Notes under the pieces: model-generated
Databases searched by the model: none
What the model was told of the DNA's origin: nothing
Seen by the model: the letters and a program-made list of their open reading frames with translations, nothing else
Made by a program: the position numbers and the translations under genes
In this document: positions 5,796-64,000 of the stretch, piece after piece
Layout: every line of letters begins with the position of its first letter
Numbering within the stretch: the stretch's first letter is position 1
NCBI GenBank assembly: GCA_016462645.1
Contig: JAEMSX010000002.1
Location: 57,481 to 121,480, forward strand
DNA length: 64,000 nt
Origin: Thermoleophilaceae bacterium
GTDB taxonomy: Bacteria; Actinomycetota; Thermoleophilia; Solirubrobacterales; JACPNS01
Reading direction: 5' to 3'

Positions 5796-5800
5796 GTCAA

Positions 5801-5833
5801 CTGGCTTCCTCAACAAAATCACGAGGAAGCCGG
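5801..5833. repeat. GGCTTCCTC-type hairpin repeat, single copy
   Basis: CTGGCTTCCTCA-acaaaatca-CGAGGAAGCCGG, an 11-bp stem (one G:U). Starts 6 nt after the stop at 5795. Same arms as the array at 22874-23093 and the copy at 40406-40436. Confidence 0.7.
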
Positions 5834-19684: not shown

Positions 19685-22396
19685 GTGGCCAAAGCTGATC
19701 CAGACGCACGCAAGCTCTACCTGCTCGACGGCAACTCGCTGGCCTACCGCGCGTTCTTCGCGCTGCCAGACACGTTCGTGAACGCGAAGGGCATGCCGAC
19801 CGGTGCGCTCTTCGGCCTGGCAAACATGTGGGTGAAGCTGATCGAGGACAACGACCACGGCACGCCGGCTGTGATCGCAGTCTGGGACGCCGGCCTGTCT
19901 GGTCGTGGAGAGATCTACGAGCCGTACAAGGCGCAGCGCGACGCCAAGCCCGATGCCCTGCGCGAGCAGTGGCCGCACTTCTATCCGCTGGCCGAGGCTT
20001 TCGGCTTCAAGAACGTGCGTGTCGACGGTTGGGAAGCAGACGACGTGATCGCGTCGATCGCCGAGAAGGCCAAGGCCGAGGGCTACTGCGTTGTCATCGT
20101 CACCGGCGACCGCGACTCCTTCCAGCTCGTCGACGACGAGCACGGCCCCGTGACGATCATGGCCACCGGCCGAGGAATCACCGACACGACGATCTACGAC
20201 GAGGGCGCGGTTCAGGAGCGCTACGGAATCCCGGCACGGCTCGTGCCTGACTTCATCGGCCTGAAGGGCGACACCTCGGACAACATCCCTGGCGTCCCCG
20301 GCATCGGCGAGAAGACTGCGATGCAGCTGCTCCAGGAGTTCGGCGGACTCGAAGAGGTGCTCGCCAACATCGACAACATCTCCGGCGCCAAGCGCAAGGA
20401 GAATCTCGCCAACAACGCCGACCTCGCACGGATCTCGCGCGATCTGGCGACCATGCACCGCGACATCGAGTTGCCCGAACTCTCAATCGAAGAAGTCTTC
20501 GCGTCGCGGATCGACCCGAAGGCGCTGCGCGACCAACTGCGCGAGAACGATCTGCGCGAGCCGTTGCGCCGGGTCGAGCGGCTCTTCCAGGAGGCCGAGT
20601 TCGAGGGCATCGAGGATGAGATTCGCGAGGCGATGGCTGAGGAGTCCGGCGCGGAGGAGGCTGTCGCGGAGATCACGGTCAAGCAGACGCCGGTAGGGGC
20701 GCTCGAGAAGGTGTTCACCGACCCTGCGCAGTTTCTCGTCCATCGCGCGGATGCCGCGCTTGACGGGCCGGCCGATTCCCTCCTGGCCGACGCCGAGAAT
20801 CAGTCAGCCGGCGAAGCGGCGCGCTACGCGGTCGTCGCGAAGAACGGCGTGGTGCATGTTGGTGAGGCGGCTTCGGTGGAGGAGTTCCTGGCGCTCGTTG
20901 GTGAGCGCGCGGTGGTCACGCATGACCTCAAGGCGCAGCTCGAGCGCACCGACGCGGCTGTTCCGCAGCTCGATCACGACACGCGCATTGCTGCCTACCT
21001 GATCGATTCGGCGCGACGCCAGTACGCGATTCGCGAGATGGCGATCGAGCTGGGCGTGCAGCCGGGCGCGGTGGACGACGACGCGATCCCGGCCGAACTC
21101 ACCCAGCTGGCGATTGACGCCGACGCGATGGTTCGCGTCGCCGAGCTTCAGCGCGAAGAGCTGAAGTCGTTGGGCCTCGAGAAGGTCGAGAAGGAGGTCG
21201 AGCTCCCGCTCGTCTCCGTGCTCGTGGAGATCGAGCGCAATGGTCTGAAGCTTGATGTCGACGCGCTGGCGAAGGCTGCCGAGGGATTCGTCGAGGAGAT
21301 CGCTCAGCTCGAGTCCGACATCTACGAGCTCGCCGGCAGGCAGTTCACGATCGGCTCGCCCAAGCAGCTCGGACCGATCCTCTTCGAGGAACTCGGTCTT
21401 CCCGCCGGACGCAAGGGCAAGACCGGGTACTCGACCGACGCTCGCGTGCTCGCGGGAATCCGCGACAAGCACCCGATCGTGGAGAAGATCGAGCGCTGGC
21501 GCGAACTGACCAAACTGAAGAGCACATATGTGGACTCGCTGCCCAAGGACGTCTCGCCCAAGGACGGCCGCATCCACACCACGCTCGACCAGACGCGCGC
21601 GGCGACCGGGCGCCTCAGCTCGACCAATCCCAACCTGCAGAACATCCCCGTGCGCACGCCGCTCGGCGCGACGATCCGCGAGTGCTTCGTCGCAGAGCCG
21701 GGGATGATCCTGACCAGCGCCGACTATTCACAGGTGGAGCTGCGCGTGCTGGCGCAGGTCGCAGACGACGAGGTCCTGAAGGACATTTTCCGCCGCGGTG
21801 AAGACGTGCACACAGAGACCGCTGCCGCAATCTTCGGTATCGATCCCGCCGATGTCGACCACGCCACGCGCGATCGCGCCAAGGCCGTCAACTTCGGGAT
21901 CATCTACGGGCTGAGCGCGTTCGGCCTGAGCGACCGCCTGAAGATCCCGCGCGATGAAGCCGCCGAGTTCATCAAGCGCTACCTCGGCCGCTTCACCGGC
22001 GTGAAGCAGTTCATGGACGACACGGTCGCCCAGGCCAAGAAGGACGGCTATGTCACGACCCTGATCGGCCGCCGCCGCGCGATCCCGGAGATCAACTCCT
22101 CGCAGGTCCAGACGCGCAACCTCGGCGAGCGGCTCGCGATCAACACCGTCGTGCAGGGCACCGCCGCCGACATCATCAAGCAGGCGATGATCGATGTGAG
22201 CAAGGCTCTGGCCGAGAGTGGCCTCAAGACCAAGCTTGTTCTGCAGATTCACGACGAACTGCTTTTCGAAGGGCCGAAGGACGAGGCCGACGCAATCGCC
22301 GAGCTGGCCGTGCGCGTGATGGCCGACGCCTATCCGCTCGATCCGCCGCTCGGTGTGTCGGTCGGCTCGGGCCCGAACTGGCTCGCTGCCAAGTAG
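19685..22396 (+). CDS. polA: DNA polymerase I
   Basis: 903 aa, GTG start. 5' nuclease N-terminus (LLDGNSLAYRAFFAL, GDRDSFQL). Polymerase motifs DYSQVELRVLA, RDRAKAVNFGIIYG, QIHDELLFE. Confidence 0.97.
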   Translation: MAKADPDARKLYLLDGNSLAYRAFFALPDTFVNAKGMPTGALFGLANMWVKLIEDNDHGTPAVIAVWDAGLSGRGEIYEPYKAQRDAKPDALREQWPHFYPLAEAFGFKNVRVDGWEADDVIASIAEKAKAEGYCVVIVTGDRDSFQLVDDEHGPVTIMATGRGITDTTIYDEGAVQERYGIPARLVPDFIGLKGDTSDNIPGVPGIGEKTAMQLLQEFGGLEEVLANIDNISGAKRKENLANNADLARISRDLATMHRDIELPELSIEEVFASRIDPKALRDQLRENDLREPLRRVERLFQEAEFEGIEDEIREAMAEESGAEEAVAEITVKQTPVGALEKVFTDPAQFLVHRADAALDGPADSLLADAENQSAGEAARYAVVAKNGVVHVGEAASVEEFLALVGERAVVTHDLKAQLERTDAAVPQLDHDTRIAAYLIDSARRQYAIREMAIELGVQPGAVDDDAIPAELTQLAIDADAMVRVAELQREELKSLGLEKVEKEVELPLVSVLVEIERNGLKLDVDALAKAAEGFVEEIAQLESDIYELAGRQFTIGSPKQLGPILFEELGLPAGRKGKTGYSTDARVLAGIRDKHPIVEKIERWRELTKLKSTYVDSLPKDVSPKDGRIHTTLDQTRAATGRLSSTNPNLQNIPVRTPLGATIRECFVAEPGMILTSADYSQVELRVLAQVADDEVLKDIFRRGEDVHTETAAAIFGIDPADVDHATRDRAKAVNFGIIYGLSAFGLSDRLKIPRDEAAEFIKRYLGRFTGVKQFMDDTVAQAKKDGYVTTLIGRRRAIPEINSSQVQTRNLGERLAINTVVQGTAADIIKQAMIDVSKALAESGLKTKLVLQIHDELLFEGPKDEADAIAELAVRVMADAYPLDPPLGVSVGSGPNWLAAK

Positions 22397-22409: not shown

Positions 22410-22859
22410 ATGGATCGCACGCTCGCCGTGCTGCTCACCGCCGGGGTCGGCGGACTGCTTGCCGCGCAGGCGCCGATCAACGGTCAGCTCGGTCTGCATG
22501 TCGGCAAGCTGCAGGCGGCGATGATCTCGTTCGTCGTCGGGACGGCGCTCCTGAGCATGATCGTCTTCGCCTTCGCCGGTGGTCTTCCGGACGGCACCGG
22601 CGTGGGGACGGTGCCTTGGTACTACTTCATCGGCGGCCTGCTCGGCGCCGGATACATCACCACGGTGATCTTCACGGTCGGGACTCTGGGCGCCGGGGGC
22701 ATCACCGCTGCGACGATCTCCGCGCAGCTGGTCACCTCGATGCTGCTGGACCAGTTCGGGGCCTTCGGCCTCGACAAACACCCGATCACCTGGACCCGCC
22801 TGCTCGGCGTTCTGTTGCTCGCAGCAGGCACCTACCTCGTCGTCGCCGGCCGCGGCTGA
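22410..22859 (+). CDS. DMT-superfamily small membrane transporter (YdcZ/DUF606-like)
   Basis: 149 aa from MDRTLAVLLTAGVGGLLAAQAPINGQLG. About 5 TM. The track start at 22353 overlaps the polA end and is rejected. Confidence 0.6.
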   Translation: MDRTLAVLLTAGVGGLLAAQAPINGQLGLHVGKLQAAMISFVVGTALLSMIVFAFAGGLPDGTGVGTVPWYYFIGGLLGAGYITTVIFTVGTLGAGGITAATISAQLVTSMLLDQFGAFGLDKHPITWTRLLGVLLLAAGTYLVVAGRG

Positions 22860-22873
22860 TCGCCGCATCGACT

Positions 22874-23093
22874 GGCTTCCTCGCGACGCCGCCGAGGAAC
22901 CGAGTGGCTTCCTCACGACGCCGTTGAGGAACCCACTGGCTTCCTCAATACCGCGCTGAGGAAGCCACTCGGTTCCTCGGGGTTTCGCTGAGGAAGCGCG
23001 GTGCCTCCTCGGCGAACACGCGAGGAAGCGCGGTGCTTCCTCGGGCAATCGCTGGGGAAGAACGGTTGCTCCTCACGCGAATCCCGAGGAGGC
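22874..23093. repeat. Array of 7 tandem hairpin (palindromic) units, period 32-33 bp
   Basis: Unit starts are at 22874, 22906, 22938, 22971, 23003, 23035 and 23068. Each unit is G(G/C)(C/T)TCCTC(A/G)-loop 9-11 nt-(C/T)GAGGA(A/G)(G/C)C. Unit 3 is a perfect 10-bp stem (GGCTTCCTCA / TGAGGAAGCC). Outer units degenerate. Confidence 0.85.
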
Positions 23094-23170
23094 GCGCGCG
23101 GGCTCGATTTTCCCGCAAACCACGCAATCGCAGGCCCCGTGCGGGGATGCGGGTGACCGCGTTTTGGTAT

Positions 23171-23190
23171 GCAGAGTTGTATACAGCTCT
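23171..23190. promoter_or_regulatory. 20-bp palindrome, candidate GntR operator 1
   Basis: CAGAGTTGTATACAGCTCTG; 9 of 10 positions pair as an inverted repeat. Lies 129-148 nt upstream of the GntR ATG. Confidence 0.5.
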
Positions 23191-23219
23191 GAACACATGG
23201 CTAAACGGGGCCTGTGCAT

Positions 23220-23227
23220 TTTGTACA
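23220..23227. promoter_or_regulatory. TTGTACAA palindrome, candidate GntR half-strength site / promoter overlap
   Basis: Perfect 8-bp palindrome in an AT-richer patch (cattTTGTACAAgctgagataaaagg). Confidence 0.3.
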
Positions 23228-23294
23228 AGCTGAGATAAAAGGGGATTGCGAGCGCGCCTAACTTGCCCCGTAATGCGTTGCTCGTCTACATCTC

Positions 23295-23308
23295 GGTATA
23301 CAACTCTG
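23295..23308. promoter_or_regulatory. Candidate GntR operator 2 (inverted copy of operator-1 half-site)
   Basis: GGTATACAACTCTG is the reverse complement of CAGAGTTGTATACC and matches 13/13 of the left half of operator 1. Lies 11-24 nt upstream of the ATG at 23319. Confidence 0.5.
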
Positions 23309-23318
23309 GACTCGGAAC

Positions 23319-24071
23319 ATGTCTCCGCGTGACCTCATCGCTCAGCTACTTGAGCAGGGGGGCGCCGACGACGTGAGCGGTGGCGACTCGATCGCAGAAC
23401 GCGTCTACCAGGACCTTCGCGGCGAACTGCTCTTCGGGCAGATCCCGCTCGGTGAGCGCCTGGTCGAGGAGCATCTCGCCGAGCGCTACGAGTGCAGCCG
23501 CACGCCCGTCCGCGAGGCGCTGCATCGCCTCCAGGCCGACGGCCACGTCGTCAAGCATCCGATGGGCGGAATCACTCCGCAGCCGCCGCAGGCGACCGCG
23601 CTCGAGGAGCTCTACGAGCTTCGCGTCGTGCTCGAGGACCTGATCGTCCGCCGTGCCGCGAACGCCGAGGAGAAGCTCGAGGTCGCCGACCTGCGCGCCA
23701 GCTGGGCCGAGCTCGCTGAGCTCGACCCGGAGCGTCGCGCCAGGATCGGCACACCCGACTTCGTCTACGCCGATGAGGCCTTCCACGAGGGCCTCGCTGC
23801 CGCCGCCGGAAACCACTCGGCCGCGCGCTACCTGCGGGACATCAACGAGCGCATCCGCATCCTGCGCGTCCACGACTTCACGACCGACGACCGCATCGAC
23901 GCCACGATCGTCGAGCACATCGAGATCGCAGATGCGGTGCTCGCCGGCGAGGCTGACGCCGCCGCCGCGCTGATGCGCGTTCACATCGACCGCAGCGCTC
24001 GTGTCGTTGAAGACCGCGTGGGCCGGATGCTCACAAGAATGTTCGACGCATCACAAGGGAGCGCCGAGTAG
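23319..24071 (+). CDS. GntR-family transcriptional regulator (FadR/FCD-type C-terminal domain)
   Basis: 250 aa. w[33 protein letters not shown]. All-helical C-terminal domain with His residues ([14 protein letters not shown]). Confidence 0.88.
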
Positions 24072-25627
24072 TGGAAGCTCAGATGAACCCCGAGCCGACT
24101 CCGTCGGTCGCCGTCATCGGTCTGACCAAGCGTTTCGGCAGCCTGGTCGCCAACAACAAAGTCGACTTCGAGCTCTACCCCGGCGAGGTGCACGCGCTAC
24201 TCGGCGAGAACGGCGCCGGCAAGTCCACGCTCGCGAAATCGCTCTACGGCGTGAACGTGCCCGACGAGGGCCAGATCCTCGTCGACGGCGAGCCGCTCGA
24301 GATCGACTCACCGGCGGTCGCCCGCGAAGCCGGCATTGGGCTCGTCTTCCAGGACTTCCGGCTGATCCCGGCGCTCACCGTGCTCGAGAACATCGCGCTC
24401 GCGCTTCCCGAGCACGGCATTCTGCTCAACAACGACGAGATCGAGGAGCGCTTCGTCGCGCTCGCCGAGCAGTACAACATGAGCGTTCACCCGCATCGCC
24501 TGATCGAGGAGATCTCGATGAGCGAGCGGCAGCAGGCGGAGATTCTCAAGGTGCTGCTCTGCGGCGCCAAGACCGTCATCCTCGACGAACCCACCAGCCT
24601 GCTCGCACCGCAGGAAGTCGAGGGCCTGATGAACGTCATCCGCGATCTGCGCGACCAGGGCTTCGCGCTGGCGATCATCACGCACAAGATTCCGGACGTT
24701 CGCGCCGTCTGCAACCGCGTCACGATCCTGCGCCAGGGCACCGTCGTCTTCGCAACCGACAAGCTCGCCGAAATGAGCGACGAGGAACTGATCGACAACG
24801 TGGTCGGCCAGGAGATCCCGACGCTCACGCATCGCCCGCAGGTGGTCGCGCACGCAGAGGGTCCGGCCCTGATGCTCGAACACATCACGGTCAACGGCGA
24901 CAACGACCTTCCGGCGATCAAGGGACTCACGCTGGTCGCAGAGCGCTGCGAGGTGATCGGCGTCGCCGGCGTCTCCGGCGGTGGTCAGCGCGAGCTGGCC
25001 GAGGCGATCATGGGCTTGCGGCCCCTCGTCAACGGCCAGATCTCGGTGCGCGGCGCGCACGTCGAGGGCAAGACCGTCGAGGAGATCCGCGAAGCCGGCG
25101 TCGCCGTGATGGCCGAAGACCCGCTTTCGATGGAAGTCGTTCCCGGCCTCAGCATCGCCGAGCACATGGCGATCGGCGGCATCGATCCGCCGAAGACGCG
25201 CATCGGTTACGACTGGAAGCGCGTCGCCGAGGAGACCGGCGATCTCGAGTCCGCCAAGGCGATCGGGCTCGCCGACCCCAACCGCCGCGTCGACTCGCTC
25301 TCGGGCGGAAACGTCCAGCGTCTGATGATCGTCCGCTCGCTGGTCAGCGACCCGAAGGTCGTCGTGGCTTGCTACCCGACCCGCGGACTCGACCTTTTCT
25401 CAGTCAGCACCACGCACAAACTGCTCTTTGAACAGGCAGAGAAGGGGGCAGCAGTGATTTTCATCTCGGAAGATCTCGACGAGCTCTTCACCGTCAGCGA
25501 CCGGCTCATCGTGCTTCACGACGGCGAACTGGCCGGCGACCTCAAGCCGTCGGAGACGACGCGTGCCGAAGTCGGCGCGATGATGCTCGGACGAAAAGAA
25601 GCTGAAGAAGCGGCGGCAATCGGATGA
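24071..25627 (+). CDS. ABC transporter ATP-binding protein, duplicated ATPase (BMP/sugar-type importer)
   Basis: 518 aa. Walker [10 protein letters not shown], signature-like MSERQQAEI, Walker B VILDEPT. Second, degenerate domain ([18 protein letters not shown]). GTG overlaps the GntR stop by 1 nt. Confidence 0.9.
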
Positions 25628-26649
25628 GTGCTCCGGACGCCACAGTCACCACCGGCGAGGAATCGCGCGGCTTCGACCCGCGGGCCTGGGTGCCCACCGG
25701 CACGTGGTTCAAGATCGCCGCGCCGATCGCCGCGCCGCTGCTGATTCTTCTGATCATCCCGCTCTTCGGGATCGACGTGCCGGCTGTGATCACTCGCTCG
25801 GTCCCATTCATTCTCGCCGCGCTCGCCGTGGCGCTCCCTGCGCGTGCCGGGTTGATCAACGTCGGAGGTGAGGGTCAGATCTTCATCGGCGCGGTCTTCG
25901 GCGCCGCGTTCGTGAAGATTGTCGGTGGCGGCCTGCCGCTCCCGGTGATGCTGCCGATGGTTCTGATCGCCGGCACGATCGGTGGGGCGCTCTGGGTCGG
26001 CATCGCGGCGTTCCTGAAGGCCTACTTCAACGTCAACGAGACGATCGCGACGCTGCTGCTCAACTACGTCGCGCTCTACGTCCTCTCGTACATGGTCAAC
26101 GGCGCGCTGAAGGACCCGGAGTCCTACGGCTTTGCGATCGGAGCGATGCTCCCCGACTCGGCGCTGCTGCCGCAGCTCGGAATCTCGACGCTGAGCATCG
26201 GCATCGTGCTCGCCGTACTGATGACGATCGCAGTCTGGCTTCTGCTCGATCGCTCGCGCTGGGGCTTTCGCGCGAAGGTCGTCGGCGGCAACCCCGAGGC
26301 GGCCCGTCGGGGCGGCTTCGCGGTCAACCGCACCGTTGTGACGGCGCTGCTCCTCGGTGGAGCGATCGCAGGATTCGCGGGCGTCGTCGAACTCGCGGGA
26401 ACTGAACTCCAGCTCCGCGCGCAGATGGCGACCGGCTTCGGTTACATCGGCTTCCTCTGCGCCTTTCTCGTAGCTCAGCGCGCCGCCTGGATCCCGGCCG
26501 GCGCGATGTTGCTGGCAGCCATCTCGGTCTACGGCGACAGCCTGCAGCTCGACTTCGGTCTCCCGGCGGCAAGCGTTTACGTGGTGATGGCCGTAATCGT
26601 CCTGTTTGTACTCGGAATGCGTGGCACAAAAACGAAAGGCGCCAACTGA
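25624..26649 (+). CDS. ABC transporter permease 1
   Basis: 341 aa polytopic. Overlaps the ATPase stop. Confidence 0.88.
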
Positions 26650-27557
26650 TGCTTGAAGCAATCATCCTCGGAGCCGTCAGTTACGGCGCATGCCTGATCT
26701 TTGCCGCTGAAGGCGAGCTGATCGCAGAGCGCTCCGGCATCGTCAACCTCGGCACAGAGGGCTCGATCCTCTGCGGCGCGCTGCTGTCGTTCATGGTCAC
26801 GGTCTGGACGGGCTCGCCCTACATCGGCGCGATCTTCGGACTCGTCGGCGGCGCACTGCCGGCTCTGCTCCACGCGTTCATGGTCGTGGGCCGCAAGGCT
26901 GACCAGCTCGCCAGTGGTCTCGCGATCACGTTCCTCGGACTCGGCGTCACAGCCGCGCTCGGCAAGAGCTTCGTCGACGACAAGATCAACGGCATGGATG
27001 CGATCGGCATTCCGCTGCTCAAGGACATCCCGCTGATCGGAAGCGCCTTCTTCGACCAGGACATCCTGACCTACCTCGCCCTGCTCGTCGGACCGGCGCT
27101 CTGGTGGTTCTTCAAGCGCACCCGCGCCGGTTTGATCCTGCGCGCGACCGGTGAGAGCGGCGACGTCGTCTACGCCTACGGTCACTCGCCGCGCAAAGTC
27201 CGCTATCTCGCGGTCACCGCCGGCGGCGCGCTGGCCGGACTCGGTGGCGCGCAGCTGGTGCTCGCGACCACGCTCAACTGGACCGAGAACATCACGCAGG
27301 GTCGCGGCTTCGTCGCCGTCGCGCTCGTGATCTTCGCCTCCTGGCTTCCGCTCAGGGCGGCCGGCGGAGCGCTGCTCTTCGGCGCTGCCTTCGCGCTCAA
27401 CCTCGTGCTCCAGACCGAGGGCGTCGGAATCCCATCCTTCTATCTGCTGATGCTCCCGTACGTGCTGACTCTGATCGTTCTTGCGGTCACGAGCAAGGGG
27501 CAGAAGCAGATGATGCCGGCCGGATTGAAGGCCGTGTTCGCTCCCGGTGGGACGTAG
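26649..27557 (+). CDS. ABC transporter permease 2
   Basis: 302 aa polytopic. Start overlaps the permease-1 stop. Confidence 0.88.
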   Translation: MLEAIILGAVSYGACLIFAAEGELIAERSGIVNLGTEGSILCGALLSFMVTVWTGSPYIGAIFGLVGGALPALLHAFMVVGRKADQLASGLAITFLGLGVTAALGKSFVDDKINGMDAIGIPLLKDIPLIGSAFFDQDILTYLALLVGPALWWFFKRTRAGLILRATGESGDVVYAYGHSPRKVRYLAVTAGGALAGLGGAQLVLATTLNWTENITQGRGFVAVALVIFASWLPLRAAGGALLFGAAFALNLVLQTEGVGIPSFYLLMLPYVLTLIVLAVTSKGQKQMMPAGLKAVFAPGGT

Positions 27558-27638
27558 TCGCACCGGTCGTCCCAGGTCTCTCTCGCAACACCCAAATGCT
27601 CGTCAACAACCTCCTCGATTGAAAGGGAAATTCCCCCA

Positions 27639-28772
27639 ATGCTCAAACGATCCTCAAAGTGGCTGGCTTTCGTAGCCCTCGCCATGCTCTCGGCTTTCGG
27701 AGTCACCGCGTGCGGCTCCGATACCGCGACTTCAACCTCCGGAGACGCGGAGGGGCAGACCGTCGGCTTCCTCTACGTCGGACCGAAGAACGACTTCGGC
27801 TACAACCAGGCGGCCTACGAGGGCTCGCTCGAGGTTGAGAAGAACGTCCCCGGCACCAAGCTGATCCAGGCTGAGAACGTGCCTGAGACCTCTGAAGCTT
27901 CTCGCGTGATGGAGAAGATGATCAAGGACGGCGCGACGACTATCTTCGCCACCAGCTACGGCCACCTGCAGCCGATGCTGGCTGTCGCCAAGAAGCACCC
28001 GGAAGTCACCTTCGAGCACCAGGGCGGCGTGAAGTCCGGTGCCAACGTCGGCACGTACTTCGGCCAGATCTACGAGGCCCAGTACCTGACCGGAATGGCA
28101 GCGGGACTCTCGACCAAGTCGAACAAGCTCGGCTACGTCGTGGCTGTGCCGATCCCGCAGACGCTGCTCAACATCAACGCTTTCGAGCTCGGCGCTCAGT
28201 CGGTCAACCCGAAGGCGAAGACGACAGTCGTCTTCACCGGCTCCTGGTGTGACCCCGCGAAGCAGAAGGAAGCCGCAGACACGCTGATCCAGGGCGGCGC
28301 TGACGTGCTCAGCCAGCACCAGGACTGCACCAAGACGATCGTCGAGACGACGGAGAAGGCCGGCGCGATGTCGGTCGGATACCACGCCGACGCATCCTCG
28401 CTCGCCCCGAACGGCTGGCTCACCGGCTCCGTCTGGAACTGGGGACCGCTCTACACCGACATCGTGAAGACGATCGGCGAGGGCAAGTGGAAGGGCTCCA
28501 AGTACGACGCCGACTACCGCGTCGGGTTCGCCGACAGCGACGTCATCGAGCTGGCTCCGTTCGGATCGGCCGTGACGCCGGAGGTCGAGAAGCAGGTCCT
28601 CGCTAAGCAGGAAGAGATGAAGGCGAAGGACTTCTATCCGTTCGAAGGCCCGGTCGTGGACCAGGCTGGCAAGACCCAGATCCCGAAGGGCGAGAACCCG
28701 ACCCCTGCCGAACTCGAGACCACCGACTACCTGGTCCAAGGCGTCGTCGGCAAGATCCCGACAGGCAAGTAG
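27639..28772 (+). CDS. BMP-family (PnrA/Med-like) ABC substrate-binding lipoprotein
   Basis: 377 aa. Signal plus lipobox (FGVTAC GSD). VGFLYVGPKNDFGYNQA and YVVAVPIPQ are typical of basic-membrane-protein SBPs. SD GAAAGGGAAA upstream. Confidence 0.85.
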   Translation: MLKRSSKWLAFVALAMLSAFGVTACGSDTATSTSGDAEGQTVGFLYVGPKNDFGYNQAAYEGSLEVEKNVPGTKLIQAENVPETSEASRVMEKMIKDGATTIFATSYGHLQPMLAVAKKHPEVTFEHQGGVKSGANVGTYFGQIYEAQYLTGMAAGLSTKSNKLGYVVAVPIPQTLLNINAFELGAQSVNPKAKTTVVFTGSWCDPAKQKEAADTLIQGGADVLSQHQDCTKTIVETTEKAGAMSVGYHADASSLAPNGWLTGSVWNWGPLYTDIVKTIGEGKWKGSKYDADYRVGFADSDVIELAPFGSAVTPEVEKQVLAKQEEMKAKDFYPFEGPVVDQAGKTQIPKGENPTPAELETTDYLVQGVVGKIPTGK

Positions 28773-28792
28773 CGACTGCGACCACGATCGGA

Positions 28793-29386
28793 ATGTCAAA
28801 CGCATCAACACAAGACGTCTCGGCTGATGCGCCGATCGTGGTCAGCGGCACCCGCCCGTATGCATGGCCCTACGACAGCCGGCTCGACCCCACGGACTTC
28901 GCGTTCGTGGTGGTCACCGGCTCGTCGGCCGGCCAGAGCGGGCAGCCGCCGGCAGACCTCGTCGAGGCCTGCAAGGCGTTCGCCGCAAAGGTGACCGCAC
29001 TCGGTGGCTCAGTCATCTGGACGGCGTGCAACGGAAGCGCGCTCCCCGATGGACTGGCGAGCACGGACATGACGTCCGAATCGCCGACCTCGAACGGCAT
29101 GATCGGCGGCGAACTGGAGCTGATCCTGCGCAGCCAGGGCATCGACCGCTTTGCGATTGCGGGCTGGCCCCTTGAGATCGCCGTTCACTCAACACTGCGG
29201 CGCGCAAACGACATCGGCTACGAGTGCATCCTGCTCGAAGACCTCTGCGTGCCGCTCGACCCGGACCTCATGGAATCGTCTGTCTCACAGATCCTGATGT
29301 CCGGAGGAATCTTTGGCGCCGTGGGCGAATCCGCGGCGCTGCTCGAAGCATTGAACACTTCAACCCCCGAAGGAGACCAGGCGTGA
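28793..29386 (+). CDS. Isochorismatase-like hydrolase paralog lacking the Asp-Lys-Cys triad (predicted pseudoenzyme)
   Basis: 197 aa. Homologous to the next gene (PYAWPY; [17 protein letters not shown]; [15 protein letters not shown]). It has T42 for Asp and A130 (GCC 29180-29182) for the nucleophile Cys. No equivalent Lys, and a ~40-aa deletion. Confidence 0.8.
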
Positions 29387-30099
29387 TGGAGACCACTGCG
29401 CTGGGCGAGAAGCGGATCACTGGCGTCGCTGGAGACCCGTATGACTGGCCCTACAACCAGAATCTCGACCTTGAGAAGACCGCGCTCATTCTGATCGACT
29501 GGCAGACCGACTTCTGCGGCGAGGGCGGCTACGTCGACCACATGGGCTACGACCTTGCACTCACCCGGGCGGGAATCCCGGCGACTCAGAAGGTGCTGGC
29601 GCGCTGGCGCGAGCTGGGCCTGCTCGCCGTGCACACGCGCGAAGGGCACAAACCCGACCTCTCGGACTGCCCTCCTAACAAGCTCTGGCGCTCGAAGCAG
29701 ATGGGGGCCGGGATCGGCGACTCAGGTCCCTGCGGCAGGATCCTCGTGATCGGCGAGCCGGGCCAGGACATCGTGCCCGAGCTGTACCCCGAGCCGGGCG
29801 AGATCGTGATCGACAAGCCCGGCAAAGGCGCGTTCGTGGCGACAAACCTCGACCTGATCCTGCGCACCAACAACATCGAGAACCTGATCTTCACCGGCAT
29901 CACCACCGACGTGTGCGTGCACACGACGATGCGTGAGGCGAACGACATGGGTTACGAGTGCCTGCTGCTTTCAGACTGCACGGGCGCCACGGACTACGGC
30001 AACTACGAAGCCGCGCTCAAGATGGTCAAGATGCAGGGCGGAGTCTTCGGGTCGGTTGCGACCAGTGAAGACCTGCTCGGCGCCTTGTCGGTCCTTTAG
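29386..30099 (+). CDS. Isochorismatase-like cysteine hydrolase (intact triad; biuret-hydrolase/CSHase-like subgroup suspected)
   Basis: 237 aa from [10 protein letters not shown] (ATGA overlap with the preceding stop at 29384-29388). LILID38WQTDF, VIDK144PGKGAF, TTDVC177VH (TGC 29914-29916). The track start at 29224 overlaps the previous gene and is rejected. Confidence 0.88.
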
Positions 30100-30110
30100 G
30101 GGGCCGCCGG

Positions 30111-31553
30111 ATGACAAGCGTTGCAACAAATGCCTTCGCGTGGGCACTTGAGTACCTCGCGGAGTGGGACACCGACGACCTCGAGCGCCGCGTCGCCTTC
30201 GACCTGTGGGCCGGAGAGCGCGGGGTGGGGGCGGCGAGCGGCACGCCGACCACCGTCGGTGTTGATTCAGGCAGGATCGCTGAGGCTGCCGCAAAGCTGG
30301 CCTCCGGCGAGACAACCTCGGTCGCCCTGGTCGAGGAGGCCCTTGCGGTCGCCGCCGATCACAACGAGCGGCTCGTCGGATTCGTCGAGCTCACCGCAGA
30401 ATCGGCACTGGCCGACGCAGCCGCGCTCGACGCCGAGCGCGCCGCCGGTGAAGTGCGCGGACCGATGCACGGAATCCCGATCTCCGTGAAGGACGTGATC
30501 CACGTCGCCGGCGTTCCGACGCGCTGCGGCTCGGACGCCTTTGAGGCGCTGCCTGAACACGACGCCTGGGCCGTCGCGCGCATGCGCGAGGCCGGCGCGG
30601 TGATTCTCGGCAAGGTCGCAACGCACGAGTTCGCGCTCGGCGTCACCTCGCCGCAGTCGCGCAATCCTCACGATCCCACCCGTATTCCCGGGGGATCCTC
30701 CGGCGGTTCCGCCGTCGCCGTCTCCACCGGCATGGGGCTGGGCTCGATCTGCACCGACACGCGCGCTTCCTCACGCGTGCCCGCAGCACTGAGCGGAGTG
30801 GTCGGAATGAAGCCGACCTACGGAACGGTCCCGACCAAGGGTGTCGTGCCGCTGGCCTGGACGATGGACCACGTCGGCGTGATCGCCGACACCGTGGCCG
30901 ACACGGCGACGATGTTCGACATCCTGCGCGACCTGCCACCGATGGCGCCGGGAGTGAATGACGGGGTGGAGGGATTGAAGCTCGGCCTCCCCAGGGCAGC
31001 GTTTGAAGATGTCGATCCCGACGTCGAGGCGGTCGTGCGCGCCGGCGTCGAGCGGCTCGTCGGGGCCGGCGCAACGACGATCGACCTCGACACGCCGGGG
31101 GAACCCGACTTCACCGGAGCGAACGCCGGCGGCATGATCACGAGTCGTTGTGAGGCGGCAACCTTCCACAAATTCATCGACACCGACCGCAGTCTTTACT
31201 GGGGCGAGGTCCGCGACCAGCTCAACGCCGCAGACGAAGTGCTCGCCACCGAGTATCTCCAGGCTCAGCGCTACCGCGCGTGGCTGCGCGAGCGCATGCT
31301 CAAGGTCTTTGAGGGCGTGGACGCGCTAGTGATGCCGACCGTCCCTGTGCTGGCCCCGCCGGTCGAGGACGCCGACGACTACCTGACGATCCTCTCGCGT
31401 AACGCGATCCTCTGGAGCTTTGTCGGATTCCCAGCGATCTCGGTGCCTGCCGGCAAGTCGCCGTCGGGTCTGCCGATCGGCCTGCAGGTCGTCGGCGCCC
31501 CGTTTGCGGAGCGCACGCTGATCGCCGTCGCCGCAGCAGCCGAGACGGACTGA
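30111..31553 (+). CDS. Amidase-signature family amidase, copy 1
   Basis: 480 aa. SVKDV (Lys), GGSSGGSAVAV (cis-Ser), TDTRASSRVPA (nucleophile Ser retained). Confidence 0.9.
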   Translation: MTSVATNAFAWALEYLAEWDTDDLERRVAFDLWAGERGVGAASGTPTTVGVDSGRIAEAAAKLASGETTSVALVEEALAVAADHNERLVGFVELTAESALADAAALDAERAAGEVRGPMHGIPISVKDVIHVAGVPTRCGSDAFEALPEHDAWAVARMREAGAVILGKVATHEFALGVTSPQSRNPHDPTRIPGGSSGGSAVAVSTGMGLGSICTDTRASSRVPAALSGVVGMKPTYGTVPTKGVVPLAWTMDHVGVIADTVADTATMFDILRDLPPMAPGVNDGVEGLKLGLPRAAFEDVDPDVEAVVRAGVERLVGAGATTIDLDTPGEPDFTGANAGGMITSRCEAATFHKFIDTDRSLYWGEVRDQLNAADEVLATEYLQAQRYRAWLRERMLKVFEGVDALVMPTVPVLAPPVEDADDYLTILSRNAILWSFVGFPAISVPAGKSPSGLPIGLQVVGAPFAERTLIAVAAAAETD

Positions 31554-40020: not shown

Positions 40021-40059
40021 AACAAAAAAGGCCCCGCCGAGCGCGGGGCCTTTTTCTTT
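40021..40059 (+). terminator. Rho-independent (bidirectional-type) terminator after uvrB
   Basis: AACAAAAAA-GGCCCCGC-cgagc-GCGGGGCC-TTTTTCTTT. Perfect 8-bp GC stem. Confidence 0.85.
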
Positions 40060-40405: not shown

Positions 40406-40436
40406 CCGGCTTCCTCATCAAAACCTTGAGGAACCG
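40406..40436. repeat. GGCTTCCTC-type hairpin repeat, single copy
   Basis: CCGGCTTCCTCA-tcaaaacct-TGAGGAACCG. Begins 1 nt after the TAG at 40403-40405, between convergent genes. Confidence 0.65.
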
Positions 40437-40453
40437 AGCATGACGGGGCGGCG

Positions 40454-41005
40454 CTAGACCTCGCCGAGCATCAGCACTGCGGCGCGCTGCATGCCGAGGC
40501 GCTCGTAGAAGGCGCGGGCGTCTTCGTTGCCCGGGACGGTCGAGAGCTCGAAGTGGCTGTAGCCACGCGCCTTGAACTCCGCGCGCGCCGCGTCCATCAG
40601 TGCACGTCCGACGCCGAGCTTTCGCGCGCTCTCAATCACTCCGATCTCCTCGACGTATCCGATCGCTGGCCCGGTCTCGTATGCGGCCAGACCTTCGCGC
40701 TCGACGCAGAAGACGAATCCGAGCACCGCACCGTCCGCGCGTTCGGCGACCAGACAGAAGCCGTTCCCGTCAGCCATCCAGCCGGCGAACTTCGAGGAGT
40801 AGAGCTCCCAGTAGGGCTCGTCGGCGCGCGCGGGCGCATCGGCCAGGGCGGGCTGCACTGCGATCTCGTGCCGATGCAGTGCCAGAGCCGGCTCGCGCAG
40901 TTTCTCCACGGCGCTTGCATCAATTTCAACTACCGCGAAATCCACGGCTGGGACCGTAGCGACCGCATCGGTCCGCTGAGCATTGTGTTTGTATGTCCGA
41001 CTCAT
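40454..41005 (-). CDS. GNAT-family N-acetyltransferase; start uncertain
   Basis: Acetyl-CoA motif IESARKLGVGRALMDAA. 183 aa if started at ATG (CAT 41003-41005). GTG at 40945 is an alternative. The long Arg-rich N-terminal extension of the track ORF (to 41332) is rejected. Confidence 0.8.
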   Translation of the reverse strand: MSRTYKHNAQRTDAVATVPAVDFAVVEIDASAVEKLREPALALHRHEIAVQPALADAPARADEPYWELYSSKFAGWMADGNGFCLVAERADGAVLGFVFCVEREGLAAYETGPAIGYVEEIGVIESARKLGVGRALMDAARAEFKARGYSHFELSTVPGNEDARAFYERLGMQRAAVLMLGEV

Positions 41006-42857
41006 GCCGGCCCTCCTCCGACCCTCCGCACGGATCGCGCTCGTCGTTTTGTCCCTGTCCGTTTTCGCCCTGATGAACGCCGGCGGCGCATCCGCGGTCG
41101 ACCAGGCCTCCGGCCCGGATTCCGCTCCCCTGCGCGAGCTGCCGGACCTGGTGCTCGACCCGTGGCTGAGCACGCAGACGAAGAACGGCAACTTCAACCG
41201 CCCCTCGGGAACGCCGGCGGTCGACGGATACGCCAATGCCGGCATCGCGTACGGGATGCTCCAGGAGGCCGCTCGCACCGGTGACATGAAGTACCTCAAG
41301 GCGGGCATGAAGACCTTCAACTGGATCAACAAGACGCGCCAGCCGATGAACGGCGTTTTCTACCAGATGTTCTCGGCCTCGGCCTACAACTTCGCGCGCG
41401 CCAACTTCGCCGATCGCCCTGAGTTCAAACGCGTTCGGGTCGCCTGGGCGAACAAGCTCCGGCGCTTTCCGTACCAGCGTGGCGTGCTCGGCAGCCGGTA
41501 CCACTACAACAAGAACCTGGTCGAGGCGCTTGAGGTGATCGAGCTCTACAACACAGGGCTGCGCGGCAACGCGACCAACGCGATCCTGCGCGATCGCAAG
41601 CTCGCGCTGCGCCGGGCACTGCGCATCATTGACGTACTGATCCCGGCGCGCGTCGCCAGCTACACCAAGACGGTCGGCGCAGGGGAGGGGTGGCCTTTCA
41701 CAACGCAGGTGGCCGACATGAGCGACCCGCCGGACAACCCGCCCGCCTACAACGCCTTTGTCGCCGGCTACTACGCCCGCGCCTACCACCAGCTCGCGCC
41801 CGGCTTCCGCACGGAGAAGATGCGCCAGACGGCCGAGACGATGATCCGCGGAGTGATCGCGCGAACGGCGCCCGACGGCGACGTTGCGTTCGCCGGTCGC
41901 TCTCAGGAGCAGGCGTGGGCGCTCTCACTCGCTTCCTACGCGGCGTGGTCGGCGTCGTCTTTTGCGACCGGCACCGAGCGGGAGATCTTCCTGGCGTTCG
42001 TACGCCGCGTGGTCACGCGCCTTGAGACCGTGCACGTCACCAGCGCGTCGTCGTTCGGCTTCGTCCTGACGCCGGCGGCCGGGTGCTGCGACAAGCAGGA
42101 CATGCCCCCGGGACAGGACCACTACTACGACGTCGCCAAGTACTCGGGCCTGACTGCGATGGCGATGGGCTGGGCGCTTCAGGAGCGCCCCGAGGACTGG
42201 CAGAGCGGCGACGCGACGCTCCCGACCGACGCTCCTTCGAATTTCGTCTACGGCGCGGGGCGCGGACGGTTCCTGCAGCATCGCGGGAACAACAACTACT
42301 GGTTCCTGCGCATGCAGACCGACTACTACGACGCGCGCTCGGACATGGCCGTCTCGGTCATGAAGGTGCGCAACGCCAACGGCACCTGGACCGATGTCGT
42401 GCCGCCGCGCCCGTACACCGGTGGGCACTTCAAGCCGGCAGACCCAGCGGCGCCATGCCTGGTGTTCCGCAAGGGCTGCGCGTATCTCGAGCTGCATGGC
42501 GGCACGCTGAACGCGACGGGCGGATTCGACTTCAGCACAATCTGGCGAACCGCGAGGGGTACGCTGGTGCGCCGCGGTACCGCGACAGTGACGCCTCGGG
42601 AGAACGGACTCAGCCTGCGCTGGTCGGGGATCCCCGGGGACGTGTTCGAGTTCGACAACTTCCTCGTCTCGGCGAGGTGCTCGAGCACCGGGGTCACCGG
42701 CCCTGGCCTGGTTGTGACGGTTTCCGGCCAGTCGAAGTGCGTCGTCGAGAAGGGCTTCTTCGCCGGTGGTTCACGCGTTGACCTGCGTCGCACGCACTCG
42801 ACCACGACCCCGCAGGGCGGTGCTGTCGAAGTGACTTACACGGCTACCGCAAATTAG
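41004..42857 (+). CDS. Secreted 617-aa protein of unknown function (alpha-rich N-half, beta-rich C-half)
   Basis: Signal peptide MPALLRPSARIALVVLSLSVFALMNAGGASA. No motif I can assign with confidence. Confidence 0.7.
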   Translation: MPALLRPSARIALVVLSLSVFALMNAGGASAVDQASGPDSAPLRELPDLVLDPWLSTQTKNGNFNRPSGTPAVDGYANAGIAYGMLQEAARTGDMKYLKAGMKTFNWINKTRQPMNGVFYQMFSASAYNFARANFADRPEFKRVRVAWANKLRRFPYQRGVLGSRYHYNKNLVEALEVIELYNTGLRGNATNAILRDRKLALRRALRIIDVLIPARVASYTKTVGAGEGWPFTTQVADMSDPPDNPPAYNAFVAGYYARAYHQLAPGFRTEKMRQTAETMIRGVIARTAPDGDVAFAGRSQEQAWALSLASYAAWSASSFATGTEREIFLAFVRRVVTRLETVHVTSASSFGFVLTPAAGCCDKQDMPPGQDHYYDVAKYSGLTAMAMGWALQERPEDWQSGDATLPTDAPSNFVYGAGRGRFLQHRGNNNYWFLRMQTDYYDARSDMAVSVMKVRNANGTWTDVVPPRPYTGGHFKPADPAAPCLVFRKGCAYLELHGGTLNATGGFDFSTIWRTARGTLVRRGTATVTPRENGLSLRWSGIPGDVFEFDNFLVSARCSSTGVTGPGLVVTVSGQSKCVVEKGFFAGGSRVDLRRTHSTTTPQGGAVEVTYTATAN

Positions 42858-45890: not shown

Positions 45891-46571
45891 ATGACTGGGC
45901 GGCTTCAGAACCCCGCGATGATCGTTGCCATCCTTGCCCTCGTGCTTGCGCTCGGCGGATCGGCCATTGCTGCCGGCCTGAAGAAGAACAGCGTCACCAA
46001 TCGCTCGATCAAGAAGAATGCGGTGACGGGCATCAAGGTCAAGAACAGTTCGCTGACGGGCGCCGATGTCAAGAACTCGTCACTGACGGGCGCGGACATC
46101 GACGAGTCGACGCTCAAGCAGGTTCCGTCGGCCGGAAATGCCGATGCCGTCGGGGGTATCCCGGCCGCGAAGCTCACGACCGACGACACGCTGATCAAAT
46201 TCAACGTCGTGATGAACCGTGGTCCCGGCGTGCGCACTCTCGCGACGGCCGGGCCGTTCACGCTGACCGGATCCTGTTTCGAGAACGGCGCGACCAACTT
46301 CGATGTTCGCGCCGAGGCAGCGACCTCGGTCAACGACACATACGGGACCGTCGGCACGAGTCCGCTTGACACGGACTTCGATGTCGGGGAGACCAAGTAC
46401 ATCAACAACGCTTTTGCAGTCGCGCCGAACGCGCGAAGTCGCCTGGCGGGCGGGGTGGATCTGCTTGACCCGACGAGTGGCCTCGCCGTGCAGGGCACGG
46501 TCTACGAGTTCTACGGCTTCCCGGGTGCGAACTGTCGTTACGTCGGCGTGCTCACCGTCGAGCGTCCGTAG
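45891..46571 (+). CDS. Secreted/anchored protein of unknown function, paralog B (KKN-x-x-TG repeat family)
   Basis: 226 aa. TM PAMIVAILALVLALGGSAIA. LKKNSVTNRSIKKNAVTGIKVKNSSLTGADVKNSSLTGADIDESTLKQVPSA. Paralog of 18657..19280. Confidence 0.75.
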   Translation: MTGRLQNPAMIVAILALVLALGGSAIAAGLKKNSVTNRSIKKNAVTGIKVKNSSLTGADVKNSSLTGADIDESTLKQVPSAGNADAVGGIPAAKLTTDDTLIKFNVVMNRGPGVRTLATAGPFTLTGSCFENGATNFDVRAEAATSVNDTYGTVGTSPLDTDFDVGETKYINNAFAVAPNARSRLAGGVDLLDPTSGLAVQGTVYEFYGFPGANCRYVGVLTVERP

Positions 46572-63358: not shown

Positions 63359-64000
63359 ATGGCTGACCGCCACGTTGACCATCTGCTGATCGGCGGGGGC
63401 CTCGCCTCGGGCAACTGCGCGCGCCATCTGCGCGAGAACGGCGACGGGTCGATCCTGCTCGTCGGCCGCGAGCCTGAGCCGCCGTACAACCGCCCGGCGC
63501 TGACCAAGGGCTACCTCGCGCACACCGAGGAGCGCGCGATGGACTACTTCCGCCCGCCCGAGTTCTGGGAAGAACAGAACATCGAACTGATGACGCGCAT
63601 GAACGTGATGAAGATCGACACCGATGCGCACACGGCGACGCTGATGAACAAGGACGTGATCACGTACGGCAATGCGCTGATCGCGACCGGAGCGAACGTG
63701 AATCTGCTGCGCGTGGAGGGCATGGGGCAGGAGGGGATCCACTACCTGCGCGCCTTCGGCAGCAGCGACTCGATCCTCGAGGACCTCGACAAGCTCGGTC
63801 GCCGCGTCACACTGATCGGGGGCAGCTACATCGGTTGCGAGGTGGCCGCGACGCTTTCGCGCCACGGCTGCGGCTGCCAGATCATCATGCTCGAGGACCT
63901 CCCGCTGCAGCGCACGCTCGGCGATGACCTCGGTGCCTGGACCCGGCGCCACCTTGAGCGCCTCGGGGTGCAGTTGCACCCGGGCGAGAGTCTTGCCAGC
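63359..64000 (+). CDS. FAD-dependent pyridine nucleotide-disulfide oxidoreductase (ferredoxin-reductase-like), 3' end cut by window edge
   Basis: Not in the ORF track because it has no stop. ATG 63359, in-frame to base 64000. HLLIGGGLASGNCA (GxGxxG), PPYNRPALTKGYL, ALIATGA, VTLIGGSYIGCEVA. Confidence 0.85.
   Translation, partial: MADRHVDHLLIGGGLASGNCARHLRENGDGSILLVGREPEPPYNRPALTKGYLAHTEERAMDYFRPPEFWEEQNIELMTRMNVMKIDTDAHTATLMNKDVITYGNALIATGANVNLLRVEGMGQEGIHYLRAFGSSDSILEDLDKLGRRVTLIGGSYIGCEVAATLSRHGCGCQIIMLEDLPLQRTLGDDLGAWTRRHLERLGVQLHPGESLAS

Follow-up and report, generated by a model that had tools for sequence, protein, structure and literature searches.

What kind of element is the array of seven tandem hairpins that lies between a DMT/YdcZ-family transporter gene (DMT) and a GntR/FCD regulator gene in a 64-kb stretch of Thermoleophilaceae DNA (contig JAEMSX010000002.1; the whole stretch is hereafter the window, and all coordinates are its own unless a relative is named), and does its host depend on it? 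An earlier note on this DNA had proposed a cluster akin to the repetitive extragenic palindromic (REP) sequences and bacterial interspersed mosaic elements (BIMEs), a transcript insulator or 3′ stabiliser, a multi-site protein-binding platform, or the scar of an island junction. We interpret the array, with a probability of roughly 0.7, as a short dispersed REP-like palindrome that has been amplified locally into a cluster, comparable to a BIME cluster or a variable-number tandem repeat (VNTR). Comparison with relatives demonstrates, at the level of sequence, that copy number and unit sequence at the DMT–GntR site turn over rapidly among lineages, that presence or absence of the palindrome is polymorphic at all three loci where the window carries it, and that the array is dispensable relative to the conserved GntR control region.

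The seven consecutive palindromic units span 22874–23096, from the DMT stop side toward the GntR gene, and their basic element is a ~29-nt hairpin, GGCTTCCTCA-N9-TGAGGAAGCC, plus a linker of 3 nt, A(C/G)T. With the invariant TCCTC core as anchor, unit spacing is exactly 32 bp (core starts at 22878, 22910, 22942, 22974, 23006, 23038 and 23070), and TCCTC and GAGGA cores alternate at 16-bp intervals along the array. The regularity first described, with spacings of 32/32/33/32/32/33 bp, therefore holds except for its two 33-bp gaps, which arise from a shifted unit start, the true period being 32. Tandem Repeats Finder gave period 32 at 22871–22978 (score 132) and at 22974–23074 (score 102), as well as period 64 at 22973–23096. 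Moreover, TTCCTC-N8-12-GAGGAA matched six times in the window, four of them within the array, against 0.03 matches expected by shuffling, and TCCTC-N7-13-GAGGA nine times, six of them within the array, against 0.78 expected. By both measures the seven palindromic units reported in the earlier note are confirmed at their coordinates and lie far beyond chance.

The central unit (unit 3, 22938–22966) is indeed the perfect 10-bp stem that it had been taken for, and folds as DNA at −9.5 kcal/mol (z = −4.4). The description of units degrading toward both ends is no more than approximate: the array is a composite in which units 1–3 are of canonical type, with one mismatch each in units 1 and 2, and units 4–7 form a distinct, more decayed sub-type with a GCGCGGT linker that resembles the variant A units of relatives described below. 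Mechanically called open reading frames (ORFs) overlap the array; it is nonetheless non-coding, as had been thought, because its period cannot be divided by three and copy number differs by whole 31–32-bp units among relatives.

A covariance model, R1, built from 16 units and run without filters over the whole window, found exactly three loci with nine units in total, namely the array and single copies at 5803 and 40408; a further match at 63503–63537 (E = 0.04) lies inside coding sequence and is no real copy. All three loci are intergenic and start just past a stop codon: 14 nt past that of DMT for the array, 7 nt past that of a small membrane-protein ORF upstream of hisIE for the copy at 5803, and 2 nt past that of an RHH-protein gene, between convergent genes, for the copy at 40408. 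Stop-proximal intergenic placement was also seen in L121, L122 and L159 (L numbers denote loci of relatives). By a rough reckoning, 15 nt behind each of ~60 genes amounts to ~1.4% of the window and, because such zones cover so little of it, stop-proximity at three of three loci is very unlikely to be due to chance. Both dispersed copies are singlets with no inverted doublet, and nothing convincing by way of shared long flanks or target-site duplications was found around them beyond the A(C/G)T tail.

The exact sequence of the window's GntR protein has no match on record; syntenic polA–DMT–spacer–GntR–ABC loci were reached through DMT homologues, and unit numbers were taken from the metagenome assemblies. 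Compared with seven units in the window, there are none in L158 (DMT 92% identical), where the stop is followed by 4 nt and then the conserved downstream flank, four near-perfect units in L121 (91%), three units plus a decayed remnant in L122/L123/L125 (89%), none in L126/L127 (87%), five variant A and four variant B units in L159 (84%), six variant A and two variant B units in L160 (84%), and none in L172 (78%). Variant A reads CGCTCCTCA-N8-TGAGGAGRCGCGGT and variant B ATTGGCTTCCGCGCAAAAACCGGAGGAAGCC, each with period 31. Identity within arrays (0.85 in L121, 0.91 in L159 variant B and 0.75 in L159 variant A) exceeds the 0.44–0.71 found between those arrays and, since this is so in most arrays, it points to local amplification and homogenisation.

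In all six relatives compared, array-bearing or not, the ~220 bp downstream of the array site are strongly conserved and hold GntR-type palindromes (GTATGCAGnGTTGTATACA, TTTTGTACAAG) together with other invariant blocks. Because this adjoining GntR control region is conserved with or without it, the array is not part of the conserved regulatory apparatus. The segment 23160–23300, which is also found in L121, L122, L126, L158 and L159, contains palindromes GTATGCAGAGTTGTATACAGCTCTGAACAC and CATTTTGTACAAGCTGAGA and an invariant AATGCGTTGCTCG block, kept even at 84–87% DMT identity, and is probably the autoregulated promoter/operator of the GntR–ABC operon. The flank at 23100–23160 (also L158, 6040–6100) reads GGGCT..TTCC(C/T)GCAAA..GCGCAATCGCAGG and looks like one half of a unit with its loop (GGCTTC...GCAAAC/GCAATC); a pre-existing proto-unit of this kind may have given rise to the array, or the array may have inserted next to it.

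The two single-copy sites also differ among relatives. At 40408, L171 (UvrB 96%) reads ...gaaTAG/CGCTAG..., with two convergent stop codons 2 nt apart, and the window shows relative to it a clean, hairpin-bearing insertion of 46 nt exactly at TAG/CGCTAG; the closest relatives, L169/L170 (UvrB 97%), have an unrelated 73-nt spacer and no copy. At 5803, L166/L167 (HisIE 92–93%) have a 12-nt spacer with no hairpin, and L162 (HisIE 96%) has a different insertion, containing a 114-aa ORF, and no copy. Judging by these comparisons, the lineage of the window seems to have acquired the single copies recently, and the DMT-site array looks older than they are and quick in turnover. The suggestion of a REP/BIME-like cluster is thus borne out by the same hairpin at two other intergenic sites, by the presence or absence of all three sites in relatives, and by an array that ranges from 0 to ~9 units.

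The same presence/absence pattern bears on whether the array might instead be an island-integration scar at the left junction of the GntR–ABC–Bmp–isochorismatase–amidase block, a degenerate CRISPR or an assembly artefact. L172 fits a scar in that it has no GntR-to-amidase block and DMT is followed directly by an amidase gene. Block-bearing relatives exist, however, both with the array (L121, L122 and L159) and without it (L158 and L126), which largely refutes the scar that the earlier note had entertained, and the hairpin recurs at two unrelated loci. As that note had recognised, the array is no CRISPR either: its abutting units are separated by 3-nt linkers and not by unique spacers, the variable 9–11-nt segment is the hairpin loop, and none of the window genes scanned has a cas domain. 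With the array found in several independent assemblies as well, we regard this group of explanations as scarcely credible.

As RNA, hairpins formed within a unit (9–11-nt loops) fold at −8.6 to −16.1 kcal/mol and those formed between neighbouring units (mostly 4–5-nt loops) at −5.0 to −14.8 kcal/mol, and single units fold as DNA at −6 to −11.5 kcal/mol. Folded in full, the array has its free-energy minimum in a long-range super-hairpin (−173 kcal/mol on the plus strand and −170 on the minus strand, z ~ −12 on both). That arms may pair with their own or a neighbouring unit, as anticipated from the alternating arms, is therefore supported by the computed inter-unit hairpins and super-hairpin. 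Such very stable RNA folds are also what recommends a selected RNA element, that is, a factor-independent terminator, insulator or 3′ stabiliser between DMT and the GntR catabolic operon, with single copies acting likewise behind other genes. REPs stabilise upstream mRNA and, in E. coli, those within ~15 nt of a stop codon reportedly lower translation; here, all three loci lie 2–14 nt past the stops of plus-strand genes, and the DMT site is occupied in lineages down to 84% DMT identity. We nevertheless consider this explanation unlikely, since L158, L126 and L172 are without the array, yet the flanking genes and the GntR control region are intact, and since copy number and unit sequence drift freely. 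An intrinsic terminator in particular was rejected: no hairpin has a U-tract, with no T-run after any of the units and no terminator-like site in 22600–23400, whereas a canonical terminator is used at 40025–40055.

In the aligned units, 89% of the cells of the 10-bp stem are paired, compared with 38–54% when the partner column is slid, and the 5-bp TCCTC/GAGGA core is invariant in 16 of 16 units, with outer stem, loop and linker varying. Recent common ancestry together with homogenisation may account for this invariance, as may a constraint on the sequence itself, whether from a binding protein, a transposase or contact with ribosomes. The two strands of the unit are nearly alike and, because R1 scores are equal on both (42 bits on either strand for unit 3; e.g. 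42.3 versus 42.4 bits), its orientation is hard to assign. Read on the strand that is sense for the upstream gene, most loops are A-rich (CAAAAC-like); in window unit 4 and in variant A they are the other way round. Judging by loop sequence the array is head to tail in L121 and L122; the symmetry still permits super-hairpins. The sequences seen in flanks and linkers are A(C/G)T, GAGT, CACT, ACTC and GCGCGGT.

An invariant core within an otherwise variable unit could mark a DNA platform, with a probably dimeric protein (a nucleoid-associated protein, a gyrase-like one as at BIME-2, or a transposase) bound to TCCTC/GAGGA cores every 16 bp. The regular core spacing agrees with this, as does the retention of GGAGGAAGCC by variant B of L159 even though its left arm is no longer complementary. 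We think such a platform improbable: the core may be invariant simply because the units share a recent ancestor and have been homogenised, no protein emerged as a candidate binder, relatives can dispense with the array, and the neighbouring GntR/FCD regulator has its own conserved GT..AC-type palindromes, unlike the repeat. As regards the multi-site binding platform envisaged earlier, a required regulatory or binding role for the GntR locus is unlikely, given a dispensable array next to a highly conserved operator/promoter.

The earlier remark that the arms resemble Shine–Dalgarno (SD) and anti-SD strings is correct at the sequence level, GAGGAA, GGAGGAAG (variant B) and GAGGAGG (variant A) all containing SD cores; nothing was found showing that it matters. 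If it did, the GAGGA(A/G) arms might be SD-like sites in the 3′ untranslated region (UTR) that capture or restart ribosomes, or take part in coupling as in mycobacterial interspersed repetitive units (MIRUs), with the TCCTC arms as masking anti-SD mimics. The three loci are suitably near stop codons, and the units of L122 and unit 2 of the window form SD-N5-GTG-6 codons-TGA mini-ORFs. The pattern is inconsistent, however, and MIRU-like mini-ORF coupling was rejected: L121 has no such mini-ORF, the window has a single one, of seven codons (SD-GTG-TGA), its other start codons opening long ORFs that run through the array, and mini-ORFs in the remaining arrays vary in length. Moreover, the SD-like arm is base-paired in the favoured folds, and hisIE and GntR, checked by eye, have no obvious SD. 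This makes a translational role very improbable. Somewhat less so, though still improbable, is a distinct actinobacterial class of stop-proximal palindromes whose invariant core would be constrained as an SD/anti-SD pair (GAGGA/TCCTC) and which would act on ribosomes at the 3′ ends of ORFs (by capture, stalling or 30S sponging, with the seven-unit array as a dosage-amplified form), or whose core would be the recognition site of a non-RAYT transposase targeting the first nucleotides past stop codons.

Under the preferred reading of an amplified REP-like palindrome, new sites would be reached with the help of a transposase acting in trans or through templated insertion or repair. At the DMT–GntR site, one copy would then have multiplied head to tail by replication slippage or unequal recombination between neighbouring palindromes, and the resulting minisatellite, kept uniform within each lineage by concerted evolution, would be tolerated and probably not required. 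Transcribed as the 3′ UTR of DMT mRNA, the array would fold into a very stable multi-hairpin structure. In E. coli, REPs as stable 3′ structures hinder exonucleases and read-through. By analogy with E. coli REP/BIME, the structure could be a barrier to 3′–5′ exonucleases and to read-through, and so insulate the GntR operon; we infer that an mRNA 3′ barrier or insulator is what the array most likely amounts to at the RNA level, and a role as 3′ stabiliser or insulator is plausible on the same analogy.

Several observations weigh against this reading. High genome-wide copy number, in the tens to hundreds, is among the defining traits of REPs, and only three loci (nine units) are visible in 64 kb; R1 run on ~270 kb of relatives' DNA (partly overlapping loci) found no member of the family outside the DMT site. 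Neither a GTAG nor a CGTC tag occurs in flanks and linkers. A Pfam scan of ~50 window ORFs revealed no Y1_Tnp, RAYT or other transposase, and E. coli RayT used as a tblastn query gave no match below E = 1 in 335 kb (the window plus relatives), a sample far too small to be conclusive; the RAYT search that the earlier note had called for thus came back empty for these sequences. The concerted-evolution signal is not uniform, in that L122 units are 0.73 identical internally versus 0.79 to L121 units and the window array is heterogeneous (0.66 within). Covariation is weak as well, the stem being backed by conservation, with four pairs that never vary and double changes at only three of ten pairs. 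Finally, metagenome assemblies can miscount near-identical tandem units, and the RNA-level effect is argued solely by analogy.

Searches beyond the window and its relatives yielded no further member. A genome-collection scan with GCTTCCTC-N7-13-GAGGAAGC returned 120 loci, all of them chance palindromes in unrelated taxa and mostly coding, the pattern being too unspecific. A metagenome scan with GGCTTCCTCA-N8-11-TGAGGAAGCC gave 30 single matches on unrelated, mostly low-GC contigs, none of the family, and neither an IMG/VR scan nor plasmid blastn found anything related to the unit. A known RNA family was also rejected, Rfam giving only sub-threshold microRNA-hairpin matches (at most 33.6 bits, compared with gathering scores of at least 100 for the two best).

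Coordinates of the array units, the single copies and the genes and control region around the array in the window.
Feature	Coordinates	Strand	Description
Single copy	5800..5831	+	ACT-GGCTTCCTCA-ACAAAATCA-CGAGGAAGCC; loop acaaaatca; R1 41 bits
polA	19685-22396		upstream of DMT gene
DMT/YdcZ-family transporter gene	22410..22859	+	149 aa; ATG start, stop 22857-22859; array follows its 3′ end
Array unit 1	22874..22902	+	GGCTTCCTCG-N9-CGAGGAACCG; one stem mismatch; RNA hairpin −14.8 kcal/mol; R1 44.6 bits
Array unit 2	22906..22934	+	GGCTTCCTCA-N9-TGAGGAACCC; one mismatch
Array unit 3	22938..22966	+	GGCTTCCTCA-ATACCGCGC-TGAGGAAGCC; perfect 10-bp stem
Array unit 4	22970..22998	+	CGGTTCCTCG-GGGTTTCGC-TGAGGAAGCG; loop oppositely oriented; first of GCGCGGT-linker sub-type
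Array unit 5	23002..23030	+	TGCCTCCTCG-N10-CGAGGAAGCG
Array unit 6	23034..23062	+	TGCTTCCTCG-GGCAATCGC-TGGGGAAGAA; right core mutated to GGGGA; R1 36.1 bits
Array unit 7	23066..23096	+	GCTCCTCA-N11-GAGGAGGC; CTCCTC/GAGGAG variant, like variant A of L159 and L160
GntR upstream region	23100..23318	+	operator-like palindromes GTATGCAGAGTTGTATACA..., TTTTGTACAAG; found in all relatives with or without array
GntR/FCD regulator	23319-24071		downstream of array; followed by ABC sugar-type transporter operon
Single copy	40408-40436	+	GGCTTCCTCA-TCAAAACCT-TGAGGAACCG; loop tcaaaacct; R1 38.5 bits; carried on 46-nt insertion 40406..40451 relative to L171

The rest of the window (G+C ~65%) is core housekeeping sequence, with his/trp genes, uvrB, uvrA, panBCD, tsaBDE, an H+-pyrophosphatase gene and others, and the named homologues of DMT, HisIE and UvrB are proteins of Solirubrobacterales, Thermoleophilaceae or broader Actinobacteria/Actinomycetota metagenome-assembled genomes. 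The terminator at 40025–40055, 26 nt past uvrB, is a textbook bidirectional intrinsic terminator, AAAAAGGCCCCGC-CGAGC-GCGGGGCCTTTTT, which by its sequence shows that the lineage uses canonical A/T-flanked terminators. Near uvrA lie two ORFs with no Pfam match: a 624-aa ORF (40983–42857) between a GNAT gene and uvrA, conserved and syntenic in L169, L170, L171 and L172 (602–618 aa; the L172 copy leaves the locus end), and, just downstream of uvrA, a 226-aa ORF (45891–46571) that contains a 30-bp (10-codon) tandem repeat of ~2.3 copies at 46009–46093. In L172 (10450–10667), the absence of the GntR–ABC transporter–Bmp–isochorismatase(×2)–amidase block (window ~23319–31553) constitutes an ~8-kb indel of a cluster for catabolism and transport. 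Small variable islets break the otherwise syntenic core regions of relatives (L162 614–958; L167 4159–4760; L159 3873–4480; L121 2628–3014; L170 6398–6854; L169/L170 18406–21114); their contents are a 114-aa ORF ahead of hisIE, VapB/PIN within the trp operon, MazE/PIN close to the gene for malic enzyme, a PemK toxin and, following uvrA, an MmeI-like restriction-modification gene that the window does not have.

On the reading that we prefer, the family would add an untagged REP-like palindrome to Thermoleophilia/Solirubrobacterales, an abundant but almost uncultured soil lineage. It is a well-understood kind of feature with no new mechanism, and one site displays what would be the life cycle of such a repeat, from stop-proximal insertion through tandem amplification and homogenisation to decay and loss. 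In practical terms, the DMT–GntR locus offers a ready VNTR marker for strain tracking in metagenomes, and its array is a likely trouble spot for short-read assembly. Should a mobilising enzyme or an RNA-level effect be found, REP biology would be extended beyond Proteobacteria.

Among known systems, CRISPRs share regular, partly palindromic repeats of ~30 bp with the array, which differs in having no unique spacers, cas genes or leader and in that its unit also occurs singly elsewhere. The MIRU-VNTRs of mycobacteria are likewise interspersed intergenic tandem units of variable copy number in actinobacteria, with potential as typing markers. MIRUs are 46–101 bp long, with small ORFs overlapping the flanking genes, whereas the units described here are 31–32 bp, strongly palindromic and inconsistent in their mini-ORFs. 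Pneumococcal BOX elements, with their variable boxB number, and the SMAGs of Stenotrophomonas resemble the family as small palindromic modules that are single, dimeric or tandem and vary in number between strains, and are unrelated to it in sequence and host. BOX has a three-module architecture. SMAGs carry GTAG tags (PMC3733652).

The resemblance to the REP/BIME elements of Enterobacteria and the REP/REPIN clusters of Pseudomonas is closer, and comprises a short imperfect palindrome (here a 29-nt unit with a 9–10-bp stem), extragenic sites just 3′ of ORFs, singletons as well as tandem clusters, variable presence and copy number, and strong RNA or single-stranded DNA folds. The array differs in having no GTAG (GT[AG]G)/CGTC terminal tag and no RAYT in the 335 kb examined, in its head-to-tail units with strict 32-bp period and 3-nt linker, whose neighbouring arms pair equally well, and in its host, a Thermoleophilia actinobacterium. 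Whereas the replicative unit of the REPIN/RAYT system is an inverted REP doublet, the dispersed copies in the window are singlets. BIMEs hold REPs in alternating orientation separated by conserved linkers; the array is a cluster with short conserved linkers, its unit is almost the same on either strand, and loop orientation is mostly uniform with some flips (unit 4, L159 variant A).

REP-like elements in general are palindromes of 20–40 bp that for the most part follow ORFs, in gaps flanked by unidirectional or convergent genes, and occur as singletons, dimers and tandemly reiterated clusters (Di Nocera et al. 2013, PMC3733652); in P. fluorescens SBW25, tandem REP arrays with even spacing are on record (Bertels and Rainey 2011, PMC3116915). 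The word 'Actinobacteria' is absent from the main text of two surveys (PMC3733652, PMC6006769), the former of which does mention an M. tuberculosis family, and we found no REP-like elements described for Thermoleophilia/Solirubrobacterales. Untagged REP-like families are listed for M. tuberculosis, D. radiodurans, Bordetella, Brucella and cyanobacteria (PMC3733652). The stem/core GGCTTCCTCA appears lineage-specific, with no related copy in the collections scanned by exact pattern, and the likeness to these families is one of description: like the element studied here, they are dispersed palindromes with no terminal tag or known dedicated transposase, and one of them is itself actinobacterial.

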